DNA of 34,780 bases. It comes from Vezdaea acicularis (lineage: Eukaryota). Location: assembly GCA_026025075.1 (NCBI GenBank), contig JAPEUI010000153.1, positions 1-34,780 of the forward strand, read 5' to 3'. Position 1 is the first letter of the stretch, and each line of letters opens with the position of its first letter. Under the pieces are notes generated by a model. It ran no database searches and was not told the DNA's origin. It saw only the letters and a list, made by a program, of their open reading frames with translations. Below are positions 11,065 through 19,903 of this stretch, one piece after another. Made by a program: the position numbers and the translations under genes.

Positions 11065-12453
11065 ATGGGTTGTGGAATGAGCACCGAGGAGAAGGAGGGG
11101 AAGGCCCGGAACGAGGAGATTGAGAACCAGCTCAAGAGAGATAAAATGATGCAAAGGAACGAGATTAAGATGCTTCTTCTAGGTAAGTTTACAAGCGCAA
11201 GGAGTGTTCTCGTAGACATACTTGCTAATGCCCTCGTAGGAGCTGGTGAATCGGGCAAGTCAACAATCTTGAAACAGATGAAGCTCATCCACGAAGGTGG
11301 CTATTCCCGCGATGAAAGGGAGTCATTCAAGGAAATCATCTTCAGCAATACGGTCCAATCGATGCGAGTCATCCTAGAGGCGATGGAATCGTTAGAGCTG
11401 CCATTAGATGACCAGAGGGCCGAATATCACGTGCAGACGATTTTCATGCAGCCAGCTCAGATCGAGGGGGAAAGCCTACCACCTGAAGTTGGAAACGCTA
11501 TTGACTCGTTGTGGAAAGACGCTGGTGTTCAAGAATGCTTCAAGAGATCAAGAGAGTACCAATTAAATGATTCAGCACGATAGTGAGTGTCGCAAATCGT
11601 TTCGTATCGTAGAAGCAAATTGGCAGACTTGGAGCTGCCTTCCCCTACGAAAGGTACTAACAATCTTTTTTATCTAGCTACTTCGATTCGATCGGCCGGA
11701 TTGCTCAACCCGACTACCTCCCCAGCGATCAAGATGTTCTTCGCTCTCGCGTGAAAACAACCGGTATCACAGAGACCACATTCATCATTGGTGACCTTAC
11801 CTATCGGATGTTCGACGTCGGCGGACAAAGAAGTGAGCGGAAAAAGTGGATTCACTGCTTCGAGAACGTCACAACCATTCTATTCCTAGTTGCGATCTCC
11901 GAATATGACCAACTTCTTTTTGAAGACGAGACCGTCAACCGCATGCAAGAAGCCCTTACACTTTTTGATTCCATCTGCAACTCGCGGTGGTTCATTAGAA
12001 CTTCAATCATCTTGTTTTTGAACAAGATCGATCGTTTCAAGGAAAAGCTTCCAGTCTCACCAATGAAGAACTACTTTCCCGACTATGAAGGTGGAGCCGA
12101 CTATGGTGCAGCGTGCGATTACATTCTCAACCGCTTCGTTTCTCTGAATCAGCATGAGACGAAACAGATCTACACCCACTTCACCTGTGCAACAGACACT
12201 ACCCAGATCCGCTTTGTCATGGCGGCAGTGAACGGTACGTATCATTTTGTCTTTTCCCTTTTTAGTAAAGACCCGGGCAATATTTTCCTTGTTTTGTTTG
12301 CTGTGGTTGACTCTAGTCTCGCACCGCAGACATAATCATCCAACGCAATCTGCAAGAAGTGGGACTGCTGGCGTTGTGATCTAGCTGCTTACTTGCTGTC
12401 AATATGTAGACATAATCATTCAGGAAAACCTGCGATTGTGCGGTCTGATCTAG
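11065..12453 (+). CDS. fadA: Heterotrimeric G protein alpha subunit, fungal group I (FadA/GNA-1/MagB type), 353 aa canonical isoform
   Basis: Model join(11065..11182,11240..11582,11678..12234,12410..12453) = 1062 nt. It has the MGCGMS myristoylation/palmitoylation N-terminus, [10 protein letters not shown]-loop, [23 protein letters not shown] and the canonical C-terminus [14 protein letters not shown]. Confidence 0.98.
12330..12379 (+). CDS. Alternative terminal exon A of the G-alpha gene (C-terminus [16 protein letters not shown])
   Basis: GTTGAC branch-like motif at 12306-12311 and CAG acceptor at 12327-12329. The exon starts AC ATA ATC like the canonical exon, is in phase with the donor at 12235, and ends at TGA 12377-12379. 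Confidence 0.75.
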
Positions 12454-12480
12454 TCGCTGATCTGATCTTCCAACCTACAG

Positions 12481-12524
12481 ACATAACAATTCAGAAAAAC
12501 ATGGTTCAATCTGGTCTCATATGA
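12481..12524 (+). CDS. Alternative terminal exon C of the G-alpha gene (C-terminus DITIQKNMVQSGLI*)
   Basis: GCTGAT/TCTGAT branch motifs at 12456-12466 and CAG acceptor at 12478-12480. The exon starts AC ATA, has the same phase and the same 44-nt coding length as the canonical exon, and ends at TGA 12522-12524. Confidence 0.75.
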
Positions 12525-13128
12525 CCATGAACCCGGAATTATGATCATTCGAACAACGCTTTTCCTATACTCTCTATCCGATGAGCTCCTATCGAAATCG
12601 CGGCAAAAGGCTTAAAGGTGTTAAAGACATAGTTTTGACGAGCTGGAGCTGCTATAATACCAACCAGTAGCCGACGTCTTATGCAATGGTATCTTACATC
12701 TATTTCCGCCCACCTTTTCCTTTCCAACACATCCTCTTCTTCCTTCCCCGAATGTATTCATGTACAAGCAGTGATGCTTCCTTCATTGGCGTTGGGCAGT
12801 CGGTTTCCCTTCTCGCGCCTGGATCTTGCTGTGCCGAGCGTGGAAGCGAGTAAGGGATGGATGTGGCTGTTGGGCAAGCGGAAGCTGGCACGGATGGGAA
12901 GCTTGCTATAGTAGTTTGGCTCACTGCATCAAAATTCTCAAGTCTATGTATTTGGGCCGCATACTAGTTTTAAAGCAGCAATCCTTAACTACAAGTTCCT
13001 CCTTCTAGAAGGATTTGGACAGCTATCTTGTATACTCCTTGTACAAATCTGTTATCCTTAAACACCGCCCGATGCTTTGATAATAGTATACTGAGCCACT
13101 GCAGCCAAACCGTTTTGTTGATGTTATT

Positions 13129-14162
13129 TCAGAATCTCAACTTAGGCAGAACTCCCACTATCAGTATCGCTATCACCATTAATCCCGCTATCCACGCATA
13201 CATCATCATTCTCCCCCACCAACCCTTTCCCTCTGTCATACGCCTCAACGAGCCTATCCGCCTCTCGGCCGCCTCCATCCCCAGGCTGTTCTTCTCCAAG
13301 TTCGCCCCAGTATTTGACAGCACATCTTTCTCCGATTCTAGACTACTGGCAAACGCCTTCGACGAGTTCTTCAACGCCGCCGCCATCTCGAGTAAGGAAT
13401 CAGTCAGTGTTTCTTGCTCTGTGCGTTGGTGGGAGAGAAGCGTTTCGCTGGTGGCTAGCGAGGCATTTGGGACGGGCTCCGAGGAAGTAGTTGCGGATGA
13501 TGCGGTAAAGAGCTCCGCGCCGCCATGGCGGGAACGGAGTTGGGATGTCTCTGGAAGAGTGGAGGGGCGTCGACGGTCGAGAGGTGAGGGCTCTTGTATA
13601 GTGGGCGTCGGTTGCGTCGCGGCGTGGGGAAGGTATTCCTTCAACAGGTCTTCAGCTTCGGAGCTGGCGAGGTCATCATCGTAATCATCGCCAAGCTGTG
13701 TTCTCAGATGATACAGGTTAGCCATCAAACCATTTTCGTTCTGCTTCGGCAGTCGCAACAAACTGAGCATCAAAGCCTCACCTGGCTGAGCTCATACAAG
13801 CGCTCATTCAACCTCTTGATCAGTTGTTTCTTCGCCCTCAGGTCTGCCTGCACATTCCGCTCCCGGCTGGCGCCTGCAGCTTTGCTGCCCGAATTCTCCT
13901 GCTCCAGGCGGAGTAATAATGTTCGGGCATACTCGAGGTTCTGCATATCACAGGTTTGTCAGCAGACATTTCCAACTGGCAAGTCTTTCCGTAGAGCCGC
14001 ACTCACTTTCCCAATCCGCGTCCGATCGTAGTCTGTGATCCGGGTTGGTGAGCTCGACGCTTCCGGAGATAGTAGAGTCGTTTCAAGGCGTGAGAGAAGC
14101 CGGGAGAGGTTGATGGCCGTTGTATTCGCAGACGGCGCAGGTGTGGAGTTTGTGTGCACCAT
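13129..14162 (-). CDS. USE1: Use1-like ER SNARE (tail-anchored), 293 aa
   Basis: Model complement(join(13129..13695,13782..13940,14007..14162)), with GTGAG donors and CAG acceptors. Features: N-terminal INLSRLLSRLE...NLEYARTLLLRLEQE, SNARE coiled coil HQRTEQETLTDSLLEMAAALKNSSKAF...LEKNSLGMEAAERRI, and a C-terminal TM segment WWGRMMMYAWIAGLMVIAILIVGVLPKLRF. Confidence 0.85.
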
Positions 14163-16957
14163 GCTTAATGCAGACAATGCTCTTGCATTGCGTACGCCCG
14201 GTTTTTATGGCATTTTACGTTTGTGGGGTTAGTTTCATCAGTTGGGATACTTGGAGCTTGCGTCTTGGGCAGCTATGCCTTGCGAGCTTCTTCGGTTGCG
14301 AGCTATCTTCCGCCAATCAAGCATTTCGCCCACGCACCTTTCCCACACATGTCAAAAACCAGCTCCAGCATTTCTTCAATATCGGTTTCTGTGAAGCTCT
14401 CGAACAGGGCCTATTCTACTGTGAACAAGGCAACCAGTTCATCCACCCATTGTTACACGGACGCGGCTCTCTTCTTGTCCAGTCGACCACAGAGAGGTCT
14501 TCATGGCTTGCGCTTATCCTTTTATAGACTGGTCTCGGTACCTTAAGGACTACGACACTGGCACAATACTGCGACAAAGCCCAAGAAGGCTGGTCCTTGA
14601 GCTTTCCGAGTTGGACCTCGGATGAGAGGAAAAACAGCAGATTCTCCGGATTGCCCTGATCTACGAAGCCGATGTCCCTCTCGGGTAGTGAAGGTATGGC
14701 ACATGACTGTTTCAAGCCACCTTTGTGGGACTCGAGCAGGTATGCGTGTTGAAGTCGACGTCAGGAATCAGGGGATCAACTGCTGATCGCTGTTCATTTC
14801 CAGTTTGAATAGATCTCTTACCGACTAGACTTGGTGGTCATCGAAGAGTATTGCGGGACAACGTCGGACCTTTCTCCGTGGCCCCAATGGAAGCTCACGA
14901 TCCCCTACCGGAATGGGGTTGTAATCATAACCAAGGTTAGGGGAGTCCTACGCTCATTTCGGTTACTTGGTAAGTTCTTCGAAGTCAAGCTAGCTCCCGA
15001 GGGCTTAATTCTTGTTCCTGAACATCTACCTTGACCAAAACGGCACCATCATGATGATCATCACACTTTAAGCATAGTTCACCTGAGGCCTTTGGGTCAC
15101 TGAACGAAGCAATTGTATCCATCTTTCGCTCCTATCTGACTACTGGATTGTCTCTCTCGGCTCTTTCGGGCAATCTCACAAGCAGTCTTCTCATTTGCTC
15201 AGTTTGCTGACACTTGCATGACACTCTCTAGTCTTACTGGCTATCTGGATGACCACACCGTCCGGCGGCCGTCAGCGCTCGTATTCACGCGTCTGAACCC
15301 CTTCCCCAGCCTTCCGCCAATATGCCATGGCCTGAGCGGTAGGGAAACCACGATTGGAAGTCGGTAGGCTAGTCCGCGATGCACATGGCCGCACGGAGCA
15401 ACAAACGTGGCAGCTTGATCCGACAGATGGTCAATCCGTACCCAAGCTGTCTTGCCTGTGTCCCGGGGCACAATTCGCGCTTCTGGGCGAGAATAATCCG
15501 GGATACTCGCATCTGTGATTGGTGGGGAGAGCGTGACTTATGAGCCTAATTCGCAATTCGAGACAATCCCCACGATACCTGCACTCCGAGCCGGGCTGAT
15601 CGAGCGCTCGCTCTCGATGTAAACTGAGGGAATTCACCAAGATCTATCCCGCCCAGTGATCTGGAAGCTTGGCATCCATCTAGTTACAGAAAGGTCAACG
15701 ATCTAACCGAGTCACATCGTATCGGTTTCATGAGAGAGATGATCCGACAGATTGGCAGATGTATCAAATTGTGGCATGGCCGGTGGGCGAAGTGGTCTTG
15801 CTAACTCTCGTCCTGCTGGGGGCACTGGATCGGACTACAGCAGCGGCACATCGCATCTCCACGCGCACTAGCCTTGTCCTTGACGTCAATGGGGAAACGG
15901 GGATGATTTGGCGGCCGCAAGCCGTAGACACCACCAGCTTTCAATATCGCGAAAGACGAAAGGCTAAAGGCGAAAGCCGCGCAGTCGCAGGACGACGAGG
16001 TTGCTTGGCAGCTGTCGTGATGGGTTTCATGTTTGTGAGAGCTTTTGCGACGACATTTCCTATCCACGCAGCAAAAGGCGAACGCTCGGGTTGCTCTGAA
16101 GAGGCAGCGTCAAGGCTTATGAAGGGGGGAGACTCTCCAGACGCGATGTTTGATCGCATGGAGCCGCTCGAGCAGCCGATCGCTGAAGGGTCTCGGTCTG
16201 CGCTCCGGACGGGAGATCGCACGGAAAGCGTGACCGGATCGGACGCGTGACGATGGCACGGACGATTGTGGTAGGCGGGCAGGGCTGGGGGGCCGTCTCA
16301 GATCGGAAGGACCCTGCCCGCCGACGTGCAAATCTTTTCCCATCTGCGACGTGGAGGCAGCGCCGCGTCTGATTCCAGTCGTTGCGGTGCGAGACGGGCG
16401 AGAGGAGCTCGAGTCGAGCGCGGCATGGAACGAGGTGGACCCCTTCTTTCATTTGCGCACCTCGTCCCTTTCCTCTTAGTCCTGGAGATTGCCACTACGC
16501 ATTTAATATCGTGCTATCGGTAGGATCTGGGTGGGCGGCTGAGAACATGTCTTGGCGAGCATTTGTGCGATGACGAGGTGGGGACGGTGGACGGTCGAAT
16601 GGCCGTGGGGGGCAGCGACGAAGGGCCGGCCGCGGCTCACCTGGGAAAGTGCCGCTGACGCTGACGCTCACACTCGCTCTCGCTCTGCCCGCGGCTGCCA
16701 AAAGCCAACGCGAGCCGAAGCGACGGAAAGACCGGTCCTTGCCGGCCCTCCCATTAGTGCGCGCCAGTCCGGAGCAGAGGGAGGGGAGGGCAGGGGGGCG
16801 GAGAGGAGCAGAGCAGGGAAAGGGCATCGTCACTGCCCAACTGGCGGCCCACGAAAGCCTTCGCCGTGGGGAAAATTGTCGAGCGTACGCCCTGCAATCT
16901 GCGGACATGATGCGCTCGAATGTCGCAACTTCACGGTGCCGCGATAGAGAGGGAGAG

Positions 16958-16992
16958 GAGAGAAGAGAGAAGAGAGAAGAGAGAAGAGAGAA
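16958..16992 (+). repeat. Heptanucleotide tandem repeat (GAGAGAA)x5
   Basis: Five perfect copies within a longer purine tract. An 11-nt G run lies nearby at 17074-17084. Confidence 0.9.
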
Positions 16993-17994
16993 GAGGGGGA
17001 CGAGAGCTGGAGGAGAGTCTCGCGCGATGGGGAAGGTAGGCTGGTCGGCGAGAGTCGGCCACGAACGCAGCGCGGGGGGGGGGGAAGGTGGGATCAACCC
17101 GAGAGCCCGCGGTCTTGCCAATGGCGCTCGACCCTTGTGCAGCCCCGACACCCCACATGGATGGACATGGACCCCCCCGAGCAAAATGGCCCACAGACCA
17201 TCGACCACACGTCGTCGCTGCACGCTCTTGCGTCTCCGCCATCCCTCTCGTCCGTGGCGTCCGCTCCGCGCCATCCACCGTCTTGGCCGAGCGAGTATAA
17301 TTCTGGCCTCCCTCTCGCTCCAGCGTCCACGATCCAATCCCATCCAGTCCGATATGCAGTCGCTCTTGTGCGGCCATCCACTCTCCGCCGTCACCGTACA
17401 CCATTCCCGCGCCTACTGGCTCAGCCTCTGTTCTTGCATGACAGCAGGACGACCGTCTTGACCCCCTGCACCCACTGCCGTCACCGCTCGTCAGACGGCC
17501 GCCCACAAACAACACCACTTCCTCTGCTCGCTCTCTAAACCGGGCACCCCTCCTCCCTTCCTCCCCGCTCGCTTTCCTCTCCAACCCTTTCACATTTCTG
17601 CCCGACTGATACCACTGCTCCCGTTGAGGATGCTCACCGTTCAGGATGCCCACGTCGGGACTCTGGTTTGCTAGGTGCTCCCGGACGGCTATATACTCGT
17701 ACGACGCCATCACCGCTCTTCCACGCATGACATCTGGCACGGTGATCTTGCCGTACAAGTGCTACTGCTCCCCTCCCGAGTCCGGATGATAGACTCGATC
17801 CTCTTTACTCCACTGCAACCCTTTGTGATACCATCACGAGAAGCCCGGATTCCCCATACCCGTGAGGATTGACGTTGGTGCGTGTTCGCATATATCTACC
17901 GTTCCTGGACCCTCGGGAGCAACCTGGATAATCGGGCCTGGAGAGGACTATCTTCGTTCCTTGGCTTCAAAGCTGGACGATCTACAGACAGGTG

Positions 17995-19903
17995 ATGACG
18001 CTTGTCTACAATCCAAGGCCCAAGGACATGGAGCGTAAACACCGTCGTGTAGGCATGGACAATACTGTCGCTGACATCCCTCGGACCATGGTTGACACGG
18101 GCTCTCTGCTTGACATATCTCAAGCGCAGAGCGGCGAATCTGTGGAATTCCACTCCCCTTCCCCTCAGGACTTCTTGGACGCTCAGTGGGCTGTCCCCCT
18201 TTTACCAGGGGCCGCAATGGACCAGCGGAATTTGATTAGCAGTGCGGACTGGGGCACCCCAACGTCCACGCAAAGCTTCGAGACCGTGAGCTCCTTCCCG
18301 TTGGGGGAGCATACCGTGGCTGGCCAGGCCCTCTTAACTCCTGTTTCTAATTCCTTTTCTTACACTGGGCCTATGCAAACTGGTGGCCAAGGTCTCTCAA
18401 TTTATGATACTCCGCAGAATTGGAATGCCCAGGCCCAGGCCCAGGCCCAGGCTGACGCCCAGGCTGACGCCCAGGCTGAGGTTGAGGCTGAGGTCCAGGC
18501 CCAAGCCCAGATTGCCCTTAGCCTATCTCCTTCTCGGAATCAGCAGGCCGCTCTCTATGACCAGACTCATTGGTACTCGGCGCATTTTGGCGTGCTGGAT
18601 CATGAGTTGGATTCCAGGCGTCCACCCAGTAGCATTGTGACAGATGGCTACAACGCGTTTTCCGGGCGTCCAGTACAAACCCGAAATGATTCTTCCAGGA
18701 CAGTATCAGCCATGTCGATCGCTACAAATGGGTCGTCAATTCAGTCCTCCTCCATGGATTCCCGGAGGCCTTCCACTTCTTTCACTAGTGATGTCTGGGC
18801 GCAGCAAACGTTCGAACCTGCGCCTGTGCTTGCGCTTCTAGCCAGTCCCCAAACAGGCGATCGACCACCTTCCCCGAGACTTGCGGTCAACATGAATGTG
18901 CCTAGGTGAGTTAAAACATGGTCATCGCAGATGGATTGGTTTGGGTTCTCATCAATTACCTTGGCTAGCAGCCCGCGACAGCGACCTCAGATGAATTTGG
19001 TGATCGAAGACTTTTCTCCCATAGACGATCCAGGCCGTTTCTCACCAGATACCGAGGCCGCAAAAGCGCGTGTAGATCCGTTATACCAAGCCCAAGCAGG
19101 AGAAGACGGCCAATATCACTGTCCTTGGAATCAGCCAAACTTTCGTGGAGAGGTCATCCCATGCCCGCACCTACCGACAAATCTCAAATGCAATTACGAG
19201 TAAGGTGATTGAATTCAGGCGATGTGCAACGACGCTGACAAGACGTAGCAAACAAATCGATTCCCATCTGAAGCCTTACCGATGCACGCGAGTAAAGGAT
19301 GAGTGTGCAGATAAGACTTTCTCTTCGATGGCGTGCCGACTCCGACATGAACGGGAAGCACACGGTATGCATGGCCATGGGGAACGTCCTCACACGTGCC
19401 CTGTTGCAGGGTGCGAACGGGCCACAAATGGATTCCCGCGTCGCTGGAATCTCCAGGACCATATGAAACGGGTTCACCACCATGTAGACCTACCGGACCG
19501 AAGAAGCGTCTCCCCTGGATCTGCTACGAGCCCGGGCAACAAGAAGAAGAGAGCCCTTCCTAACGATTCTCTTCAGACCCAGAGGAAGAAGTCTAAGACT
19601 TCGGCGTCTCCACTTGTCACTCAGGACACTGGGGAACTCTCATGGCCGGCAGGTCGTAATCAGACCAACAAGGAAGAGAGCCTTCACGCCCTGAAACATG
19701 AGATGATGACACACTCTCAGCTCGTGAGGGAGTACCTCAATCTTCTGAAAGTGGAAGCTCCAAAGCTGGACAACGCCGAACTCCAGGAGCACGTAGCTGG
19801 CATCAGACAACAAAGTCTTGGCCTCCGACTATTGCGAGACCGCCTCCCACAACCAAGTGACGTTGATTCGAAGGATCATAAGACTTTCAATGGCCCTGGC
19901 TGA
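17995..19903 (+). CDS. C2H2 zinc-finger transcription factor, about 598 aa
   Basis: Model join(17995..18905,18969..19199,19249..19903). The start codon is uncertain (other ATGs at 18028 and 18055). Fingers: YHCPW...CPHLPTNLKCNYD-KQIDSH, KPYRC...C...FSSMACRLRHEREAH and RPHTCPVAGC...GFPRRWNLQDHMKRVH. These are followed by an NLS-like KKKR...RKKSK and a C-terminal coiled coil. Confidence 0.9.
18427..18510 (+). repeat. Coding hexamer repeat (GCCCAG/GCTGAC/GCTGAG) encoding AQAQAQAQADAQADAQAEVEAEVQAQAQ
   Basis: 14 degenerate 6-nt units in frame within exon 1 of the transcription factor. Confidence 0.9.

Follow-up and report, generated by a model that had tools for sequence, protein, structure and literature searches.

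Three tandem tail exons in a fungal group I G-alpha gene may exchange the receptor-coupling C-terminus through competing 3' splice sites

Within the window (the whole 34,780-nucleotide stretch of DNA analyzed here), we identified a Vezdaea acicularis group I (GNA-1/FadA-type) G-alpha gene, which lies on the + strand with its ATG at 11065 and whose body is made up of the following parts.

11065 to 11182, + strand: exon 1, opening with MGCGMS, a myristoylation-type start
Between exons 1 and 2, + strand: intron 1, 57 nt, branch point GCTAAT
11240 to 11582, + strand: exon 2, with the P-loop and the helical domain
Between exons 2 and 3, + strand: intron 2, 95 nt, branch point ACTAAC
11678 to 12234, + strand: exon 3, terminating in FVMAAVN and the first base of an Asp codon

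One donor, GTACGT at 12235, splits this Asp codon after FVMAAVN (phase 1). Downstream of it lie three YAG acceptors, at 12329, 12409, and 12480, giving introns of 95, 175, and 246 nt, and behind each acceptor is a short last exon, referred to below as tail exons A, B, and C.

12235 to 12329, + strand: donor and intron to acceptor A, 95 nt, with pyrimidine tracts
12330 to 12379, + strand: tail exon A, CAG acceptor, 16-residue tail, TGA stop, 355-aa protein
12371 to 12384, + strand: duplicated end of exon A, in which its final 11 coding bases recur, followed by the ancestral TAG
12385 to 12409, + strand: spacer and acceptor B, 25 nt, TAG acceptor, intron 175 nt
12410 to 12453, + strand: tail exon B, canonical 14-residue tail, TAG stop, 353-aa protein
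12454 to 12480, + strand: spacer and acceptor C, 27 nt, CAG acceptor, intron 246 nt
12481 to 12524, + strand: tail exon C, DITIQKNMVQSGLI, TGA stop at the canonical position, 353-aa protein

In spliced models, each copy completes the phase-1 Asp codon and yields an intact protein of 355 (A), 353 (B), or 353 (C) residues. The three are homologous tandem copies that share the phase and carry each its own acceptor and its own stop, and alignment to solved structures places the tail exon at G-alpha-i1 D341–F354, i.e. H5.13–H5.26 of helix alpha5. A genome-wide search for the exon pattern gave three matches, all at this group I locus, and a search with the open frame running through B and C returned two chance hits among 1.84 billion representatives. 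An assembly artefact was ruled out: the copies are identical at only 21–27 of 41 nt, and an independent contig contains the same intron.

The gene matches PF00503 with an E value of 1.7e-86, and over the 339 residues of its body it shares up to 95.6% identity with named group I subunits of fungi. The hallmarks described for fungal group I subunits are an N-terminal MGXXXS and a Cys four residues from the C-terminus (PMC13267034); the MGCGMS start is present here, and the CGLI end is found in isoform B only, the position being Val in A and Ser in C. As a separate observation, the group I tails of Candelina end in LVGLI, with Val at H5.23 and without the hallmark Cys. Three G-alpha genes are present in the 18.9-Mb genome, one each of group I, group II (ending DMIIQRNLHQLIL), and group III (ending ETILQNALRDSGIL), and filamentous ascomycetes are described as typically having three such subunits (PMC13267034). 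Homologues of Ste2 and Ste3 are encoded in the same genome. For the group II gene, the proteins nearest to its last exon come from Vezdaea aestivalis (92%), followed by Sarcosagium, Piccolia, Geoglossum, and Thelocarpon, a set of affinities that points to the Lichinomycetes in the wide sense.

Several further features of the gene and its surroundings were recorded. A convergent neighbour with a C-terminal membrane anchor, which may resemble a USE1-type SNARE, occupies 13129 to 13791 on the - strand and leaves ∼600 nt for both 3' UTRs. The region from 16000 to 18000 is GC-rich (61–62%), its skew reverses strongly, and it contains long low-complexity frames that overlap. In many lichen fungi, among them Usnea, Xanthoria, Heterodermia, and Umbilicaria, group I G-alpha models carry an insert of ∼20 residues after PDYEG, the end of which is alike across genera, whereas the models of others have an annotated length of 353 aa; the insert may be a conserved in-frame retained intron, that is, another splicing variant of the group I gene.

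Comparison of the three tail exons upheld in part what a preliminary description of this DNA had reported from its letters. All six silent-site comparisons that it quoted (Ile, Gln, Asn, Gly, Leu, and the final Ile) are correct, and so are the two clusters of amino acid change, R/E/K at tail position 6 and QEV/RLC/VQS at positions 9–11. The spacers were likewise said to be dissimilar, and they are (shuffle p 0.46–0.98). The extent of silent divergence was overstated, since B equals C at 4/6 of the quoted sites. The statement that the copies contain no indels did not hold: exon A has an 11-nt frameshifting duplication of its own end. The segment at 12371–12384 matches the last 14 nt of B at 12/14 positions, a level reached in 2/2000 shuffles, and the starts of exons A and B are 80 nt apart and their ends 69 nt apart. 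The last 11 coding bases of B, if doubled, would read CGLI-AV-stop, and A reads VGLL-AL-stop; thus, the two extra residues of A (Ala-Leu and a stop in the shifted frame), which make it longer by two than nearly all natural tails, are accounted for by the micro-duplication. The 3' copy of the duplicated segment stands closer to B (9/11) than the coding copy (6/11), and this does not fit a simple old-duplicate history.

At codons for the same residue, silent differences number 2/7 between B and C, 4/8 between A and B, and 5/6 between A and C. The A–B distance (other species' mean 4.8) is comparable to that between fungal classes, so that the description of the copies as old holds for A. It holds less well for C, because the B–C distance of 2/7 compares with a mean of 4.0 in other species, only 1/38 of which is as close. 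All three copies use the rare codon ATA at Ile2, which occurs in only 1/72 other unique tails and is thus consistent with duplication inside this lineage. Within the first 14 positions, the tail versions have 6 to 9 residues in common. The best natural match of A is a group I tail (12/14), and its EVGLL ending is also found in group I tails of Funneliformis, Acaulospora, Diversispora, and Savitreella proteins. C alters two columns that natural tails keep, I3T (Ile in 39/41) and L8M (Leu in 41/41).

To place the arrangement among other fungi, metagenomes were searched with a donor-site pattern, which gave at least 112 loci; five were cut short and one was without AG, and 106 could be scored. 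Among the matches listed, one tail exon was found 31–84 nt behind the donor in 106/106 scorable loci, and a second tail copy was found in 0/100 loci with at least 300 nt downstream, the best second score being 20. A scores 49 and C scores 35 (BLOSUM), compared with a background of second-best scores of at most 20 (mean 1.5, S.D. 6.9; 100 other loci among the matches listed), so that copies A and C are far beyond chance. The nearest locus among the matches listed shares only 85% identity with the gene across the final 135 nt of exon 3, which means that sister species lie outside the sample. At locus L054, also among the matches listed, the tail exon is preceded by TG instead of AG, either a sequencing error or a non-canonical acceptor.

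Protein collections gave a similar picture. Of 273 stored spliced tails, a set in which 90% clustering would hide isoforms, 0 combined a tail of type A or C with a body of Pezizomycotina origin, and the canonical B tail was the commonest (120/273). The sole Q-K-N tail hit among stored proteins sits on a body that is 81% identical. Similarly, a tail-weighted profile search returned no such combination among the best 120 of 810 candidates, the prokaryote and viral collections contained 0 matches, and the group I protein of V. aestivalis was absent from the protein clusters looked up. Overall, the three-tail arrangement is rare in the sequences searched and probably lineage-restricted.

We next asked of the copies whether their codon pattern indicates protein-level selection, as the preliminary description had proposed. 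In a within-genome neutral simulation, a copy of B drifted while B itself drifted silently, and runs were kept at the observed nucleotide difference count; the core consisted of 10 near-invariant columns defined from 41 natural tails alone. Core columns hand-picked after viewing the data overstated C, and the unbiased column set weakened it. Despite 16/41 nt differences from B, A keeps 9/10 of the near-invariant columns (p ≤ 0.0005; p ≤ 0.004 with codons 10 and 14, where B's state is possibly derived, left out). C keeps 7/10, with p values of 0.06–0.12, or 0.004–0.04 with acceptor and stop intact. With codon 10, or codons 10 and 14, left out, the values for C are 0.16–0.24 (0.05–0.15 with the acceptor added), and across column sets with an intact acceptor required they are 0.02–0.15. 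The proposal thus stands for A, for which this simulation rejects drift at p ≤ 0.004, and is weak for C (p 0.05–0.24). NG86 counts (pS 0.65–0.89, pN 0.23–0.39) were not relied on, since pS is inflated by codons hit more than once.

These results bear on whether A and C could be junk left by a neutral tandem duplication and resemble the canonical tail by chance. C alone does fit drift (p up to 0.24), and the arrangement is absent in 100/100 other loci among the matches listed. However, A is incompatible with drift, which largely refutes neutrality for this copy; changes accumulate three per codon at variable columns and are only silent in core codons; and similarity is lost in the spacers and retained in the exons. 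We therefore regard neutrality as highly improbable.

The splice signals of the three acceptors are unequal. Acceptor A has only a weak candidate branch point, TTGAC at 12307–12311, and acceptor B is without CTRAY, its candidates being GTGAT at 12376–12380 and CTTAC. Acceptor C, in turn, has CTGAT matches at 12457–12461 and 12462–12466. For comparison, CTRAY is present in 6/6 constitutive introns (50–95 nt) read in the genome and in 71/78 unique last introns of other loci among the matches listed. The 95-nt intron before A is longer than its counterparts in 106 other loci among the matches listed (31–84 nt). Within it, at 12271–12316, lies a possible eroded fourth copy of 46 nt, which starts AG-AC and ends in TGACTCTAG, resembling the end of B (shuffle p 0.05–0.07); if real, it would account for the long intron. 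A motif TGA(C)TCTAG, a branch-point-like site with an AG close behind, precedes each acceptor (12308–12316, 12377–12384, and 12446–12453, i.e. 13, 25, and 27 nt upstream) and could either have a role in splicing or be left over from the duplication. Beyond C, AAG-ACATAG opens a 14-codon frame at 12627–12670 with a stop at canonical length (DIVLTSWSCYNTNQ) and without tail similarity, which is probably due to chance. RNA folding of 12200–12560 was unremarkable (z −1.29), and inverted pairs linking the parts reached 9 nt at most; we therefore claim no docking-site mechanism.

Further sequence for the region before A is available from a second, slightly diverged genome, represented by a gene-caller read-through (P0001), in which the intron from the donor to acceptor A is the same at the protein level. 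Compared with the window, P0001 differs at 5/27 codons and by a frameshift in intron 2 and at 0/33 codons in the last intron. The contrast (Fisher test p 0.015; 0.007 with the indel counted), which comes from a single genome pair with differences clustered in 12 codons and silent changes invisible, suggests that the intron before A may be under constraint.

If B alone were used today, A and C would be copies that were once functional or briefly constrained and are now decaying. Such a history is suggested by the frameshifting 11-nt duplication and the weak branch point of A, by the loss of two near-invariant residues and the selection signal that is not robust in C, and by the possible eroded fourth copy, which would mean that copies come and go. 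On the other hand, the acceptors and frames of A and C are intact, as is the stop position of C, the frameshift of A falls beyond the Gly-Leu hook, and the intron before A is the same in the second genome. On balance, we consider decay unlikely.

Our preferred and moderately probable reading of the sequence is that the tail which couples to receptors is exchanged through competition between 3' splice sites, with B as the canonical version, A very probably a variant, and C possibly one. The last exon with its acceptor would have been duplicated twice in tandem within the lineage, in units of ∼69 and 71 nt, and a single donor would now face three competing 3' splice sites, the choice of acceptor setting the last 14–16 residues. 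Unused downstream copies would end up as 3' UTR. Because each exon has its own stop, no extra poly(A) site would be required, a separate poly(A) site for each alternative terminal exon being described for many animal cases (PMC3228551), and spacers of 25–30 nt leave little room, which points to a shared 3' end. Since canonical exon B lies behind A, the normal protein can be made only if acceptor A is passed over, and the intron length of A is closer than that of B to the 50–95 nt of the six constitutive introns. Competing acceptors would be expected to show this pattern, in which the branch points of the near sites are weak and that of the most distant site is good. Alternative 3' sites are reported to make up 23% of fungal alternative splicing events and skipped exons 3%, and fungi are thought to use intron definition, not exon definition (PMC3925392).

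The isoforms would share 339 residues, which serve nucleotide, G-beta-gamma, and effectors, and differ only at the receptor-docking tip. Helix alpha5 is reported to provide >70% of the receptor interface, the extreme C-terminus of G-alpha inserting into the receptor core and H5.23, fourth from the end, being able to decide coupling (PMC11096383). The canonical protein would come from B, and variants with altered receptor preference would come very probably from A and possibly from C; in these, H5.23 Cys is replaced by Val (A) or Ser (C), H5.18 Glu by Arg (A) or Lys (C), and A gains two residues. The suggestion that the copies have diversified at receptor-facing positions was half right: position 11 is the H5.23 selectivity site, but invariant tail residues also contact receptors. 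Against our preferred reading, the extension of A arose by a frameshifting micro-duplication, an event that might not be tolerated if the tail were strictly functional, and C changes two near-invariant residues and has a weak selection signal. The sequence shows the anatomy, the intact frames, the selection on A, and the rarity of the arrangement; splicing to A and C, a regulated choice, and a change in coupling are what we infer. In its full form, with all three acceptors used under regulation and isoforms that couple to different receptors, this is a tentative proposition about which we remain doubtful.

The extra length of A allows another function to be considered, namely that A is spliced in as a receptor-insensitive G-alpha whose two-residue extension blocks receptor insertion; it would hold G-beta-gamma or answer non-receptor activators such as RIC8, and splicing would set gain, not specificity. 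A C-terminal extension of G-alpha may block receptor insertion, although our literature search found no paper on the effect of such extensions, and the retained scaffold residues, which also pack on the Ras domain, would be kept in such a protein too. With its two additional residues, A exceeds nearly all natural tails in length, and it is the C-terminus that inserts into the receptor core. However, A keeps Gly-Leu and the EVGLL ending, as in functional group I tails, and the alternative tail of amphioxus preGNAS is reported to be extended by one residue (PMC5896119). A receptor-insensitive A is in our view quite unlikely, and we return to a tail that alters receptor preference.

The preliminary description had also quoted the tails of groups II and III, correctly for this genome, and had hinted at mimicry of these paralogues. 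Under this proposal, A would be a mimic of the group II tail, and C of the group III tail, routing the receptors of those subunits into group I outputs. IIQRNL of A does recur unchanged in this genome's group II tail, and A codons 3–10 match group II at 20/24 nt (B at 14/24). Moreover, Arg6 occurs in 20/35 and Gln9 in 7/35 group II tails and both in 0/41 group I tails; residue 6, acidic in B, is basic in both A and C, a change toward the group II state; and 4/6 changed positions at columns 6, 9, and 10 are group II-common residues (∼1.2 expected). Comparison of whole tails with the genome's own group II and III did not bear the proposal out: A matches group II at 8/13 positions (B at 7/13), and C matches group III at 3/14 (B at 5/14), its sole convergence with group III being Ser11. 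Furthermore, the last five residues of A, the most important ones, remain group I-type (GLLAL, compared with HQLIL in group II). The group II tail is without the Gly-Leu hook and has 13 residues, compared with 16 in A and 14 in B. Polar residues are expected anyway at exposed columns, and the additional silent matches fall on the most frequent codons. The 20/24 nt can be explained without ectopic copying from the group II gene. From these comparisons, we reject mimicry by C and see in A a weak hint of it; as an account of both tails, mimicry is very unlikely.

The group I tail barely varies. Fungal receptors are reportedly many and mostly orphan. The Neurospora group I subunit is described as serving PRE-1, GPR-1, and GPR-4 (PMC13267034). 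Three natural tails on one body, two of which alter H5.23 and reverse the charge at H5.18, make the question of which residues pair a fungal receptor with its G-alpha directly testable in yeast. If our preferred reading is correct, the cassette would swap exactly the receptor-inserted half of alpha5 with outputs fixed, and five G-alpha proteins would come from three genes in a small-genome fungus. It would then also be the first G-alpha diversification by exon duplication in a fungus and a ready probe of receptor-pairing residues, and tail swapping would have had a separate origin in a fungus, reached in the simplest way, with acceptors of a single intron in competition. Our literature search found no fungal G-alpha with alternative tail exons, although gene models in, or supplements to, genome papers on the lineage could contain these isoforms, and "splic" has 0 occurrences in the available text of the fungal G-protein and receptor reviews PMC13308352 and PMC13267034.

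The closest known parallels are in animals. Vertebrate GNAO1 (G-alpha-o1/o2) has tandem duplicated last coding exons that provide alternative receptor-contacting C-termini, according to the available text of PMC5896119. There, two copies of the mutually exclusive exon pair 7–8 span far more than alpha5, and the duplication is ancient, vertebrate-wide, and seen in transcripts (PMC5896119), whereas the fungal tails are known from genome sequence. The fungal locus has, in contrast, three copies of a single 44-nt exon, 69–71 nt apart, that cover H5.13–H5.26 only and are lineage-restricted. Amphioxus preGNAS is similar in that its exons 12–13 reflect a local duplication of alpha5-coding exons with one version extending the C-terminus; it is of the Gs class, with two versions that are 80–81% identical (PMC5896119), whereas the fungal gene is of the Gi-like group I and has three. 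The last intron has the same position here as in fungal group I G-alpha genes of the GNA-1, FadA, and MagB type. More generally, C-terminal swaps are the most enriched class among human tandem duplicated exon substitutions (77/236 events; PMC9741552), although those data are from an animal and the word "fungi" is absent from the main text of that source. In engineered yeast Gpa1 chimeras, a swap of the last five residues is reported to change receptor coupling (PMC13308352); those are laboratory constructs, whereas the V. acicularis tails would be natural and splicing-based. In conclusion, the principle of tail swapping is known, and this locus stands apart by its kingdom, its three copies, and a cassette confined to the receptor-inserted half-helix.
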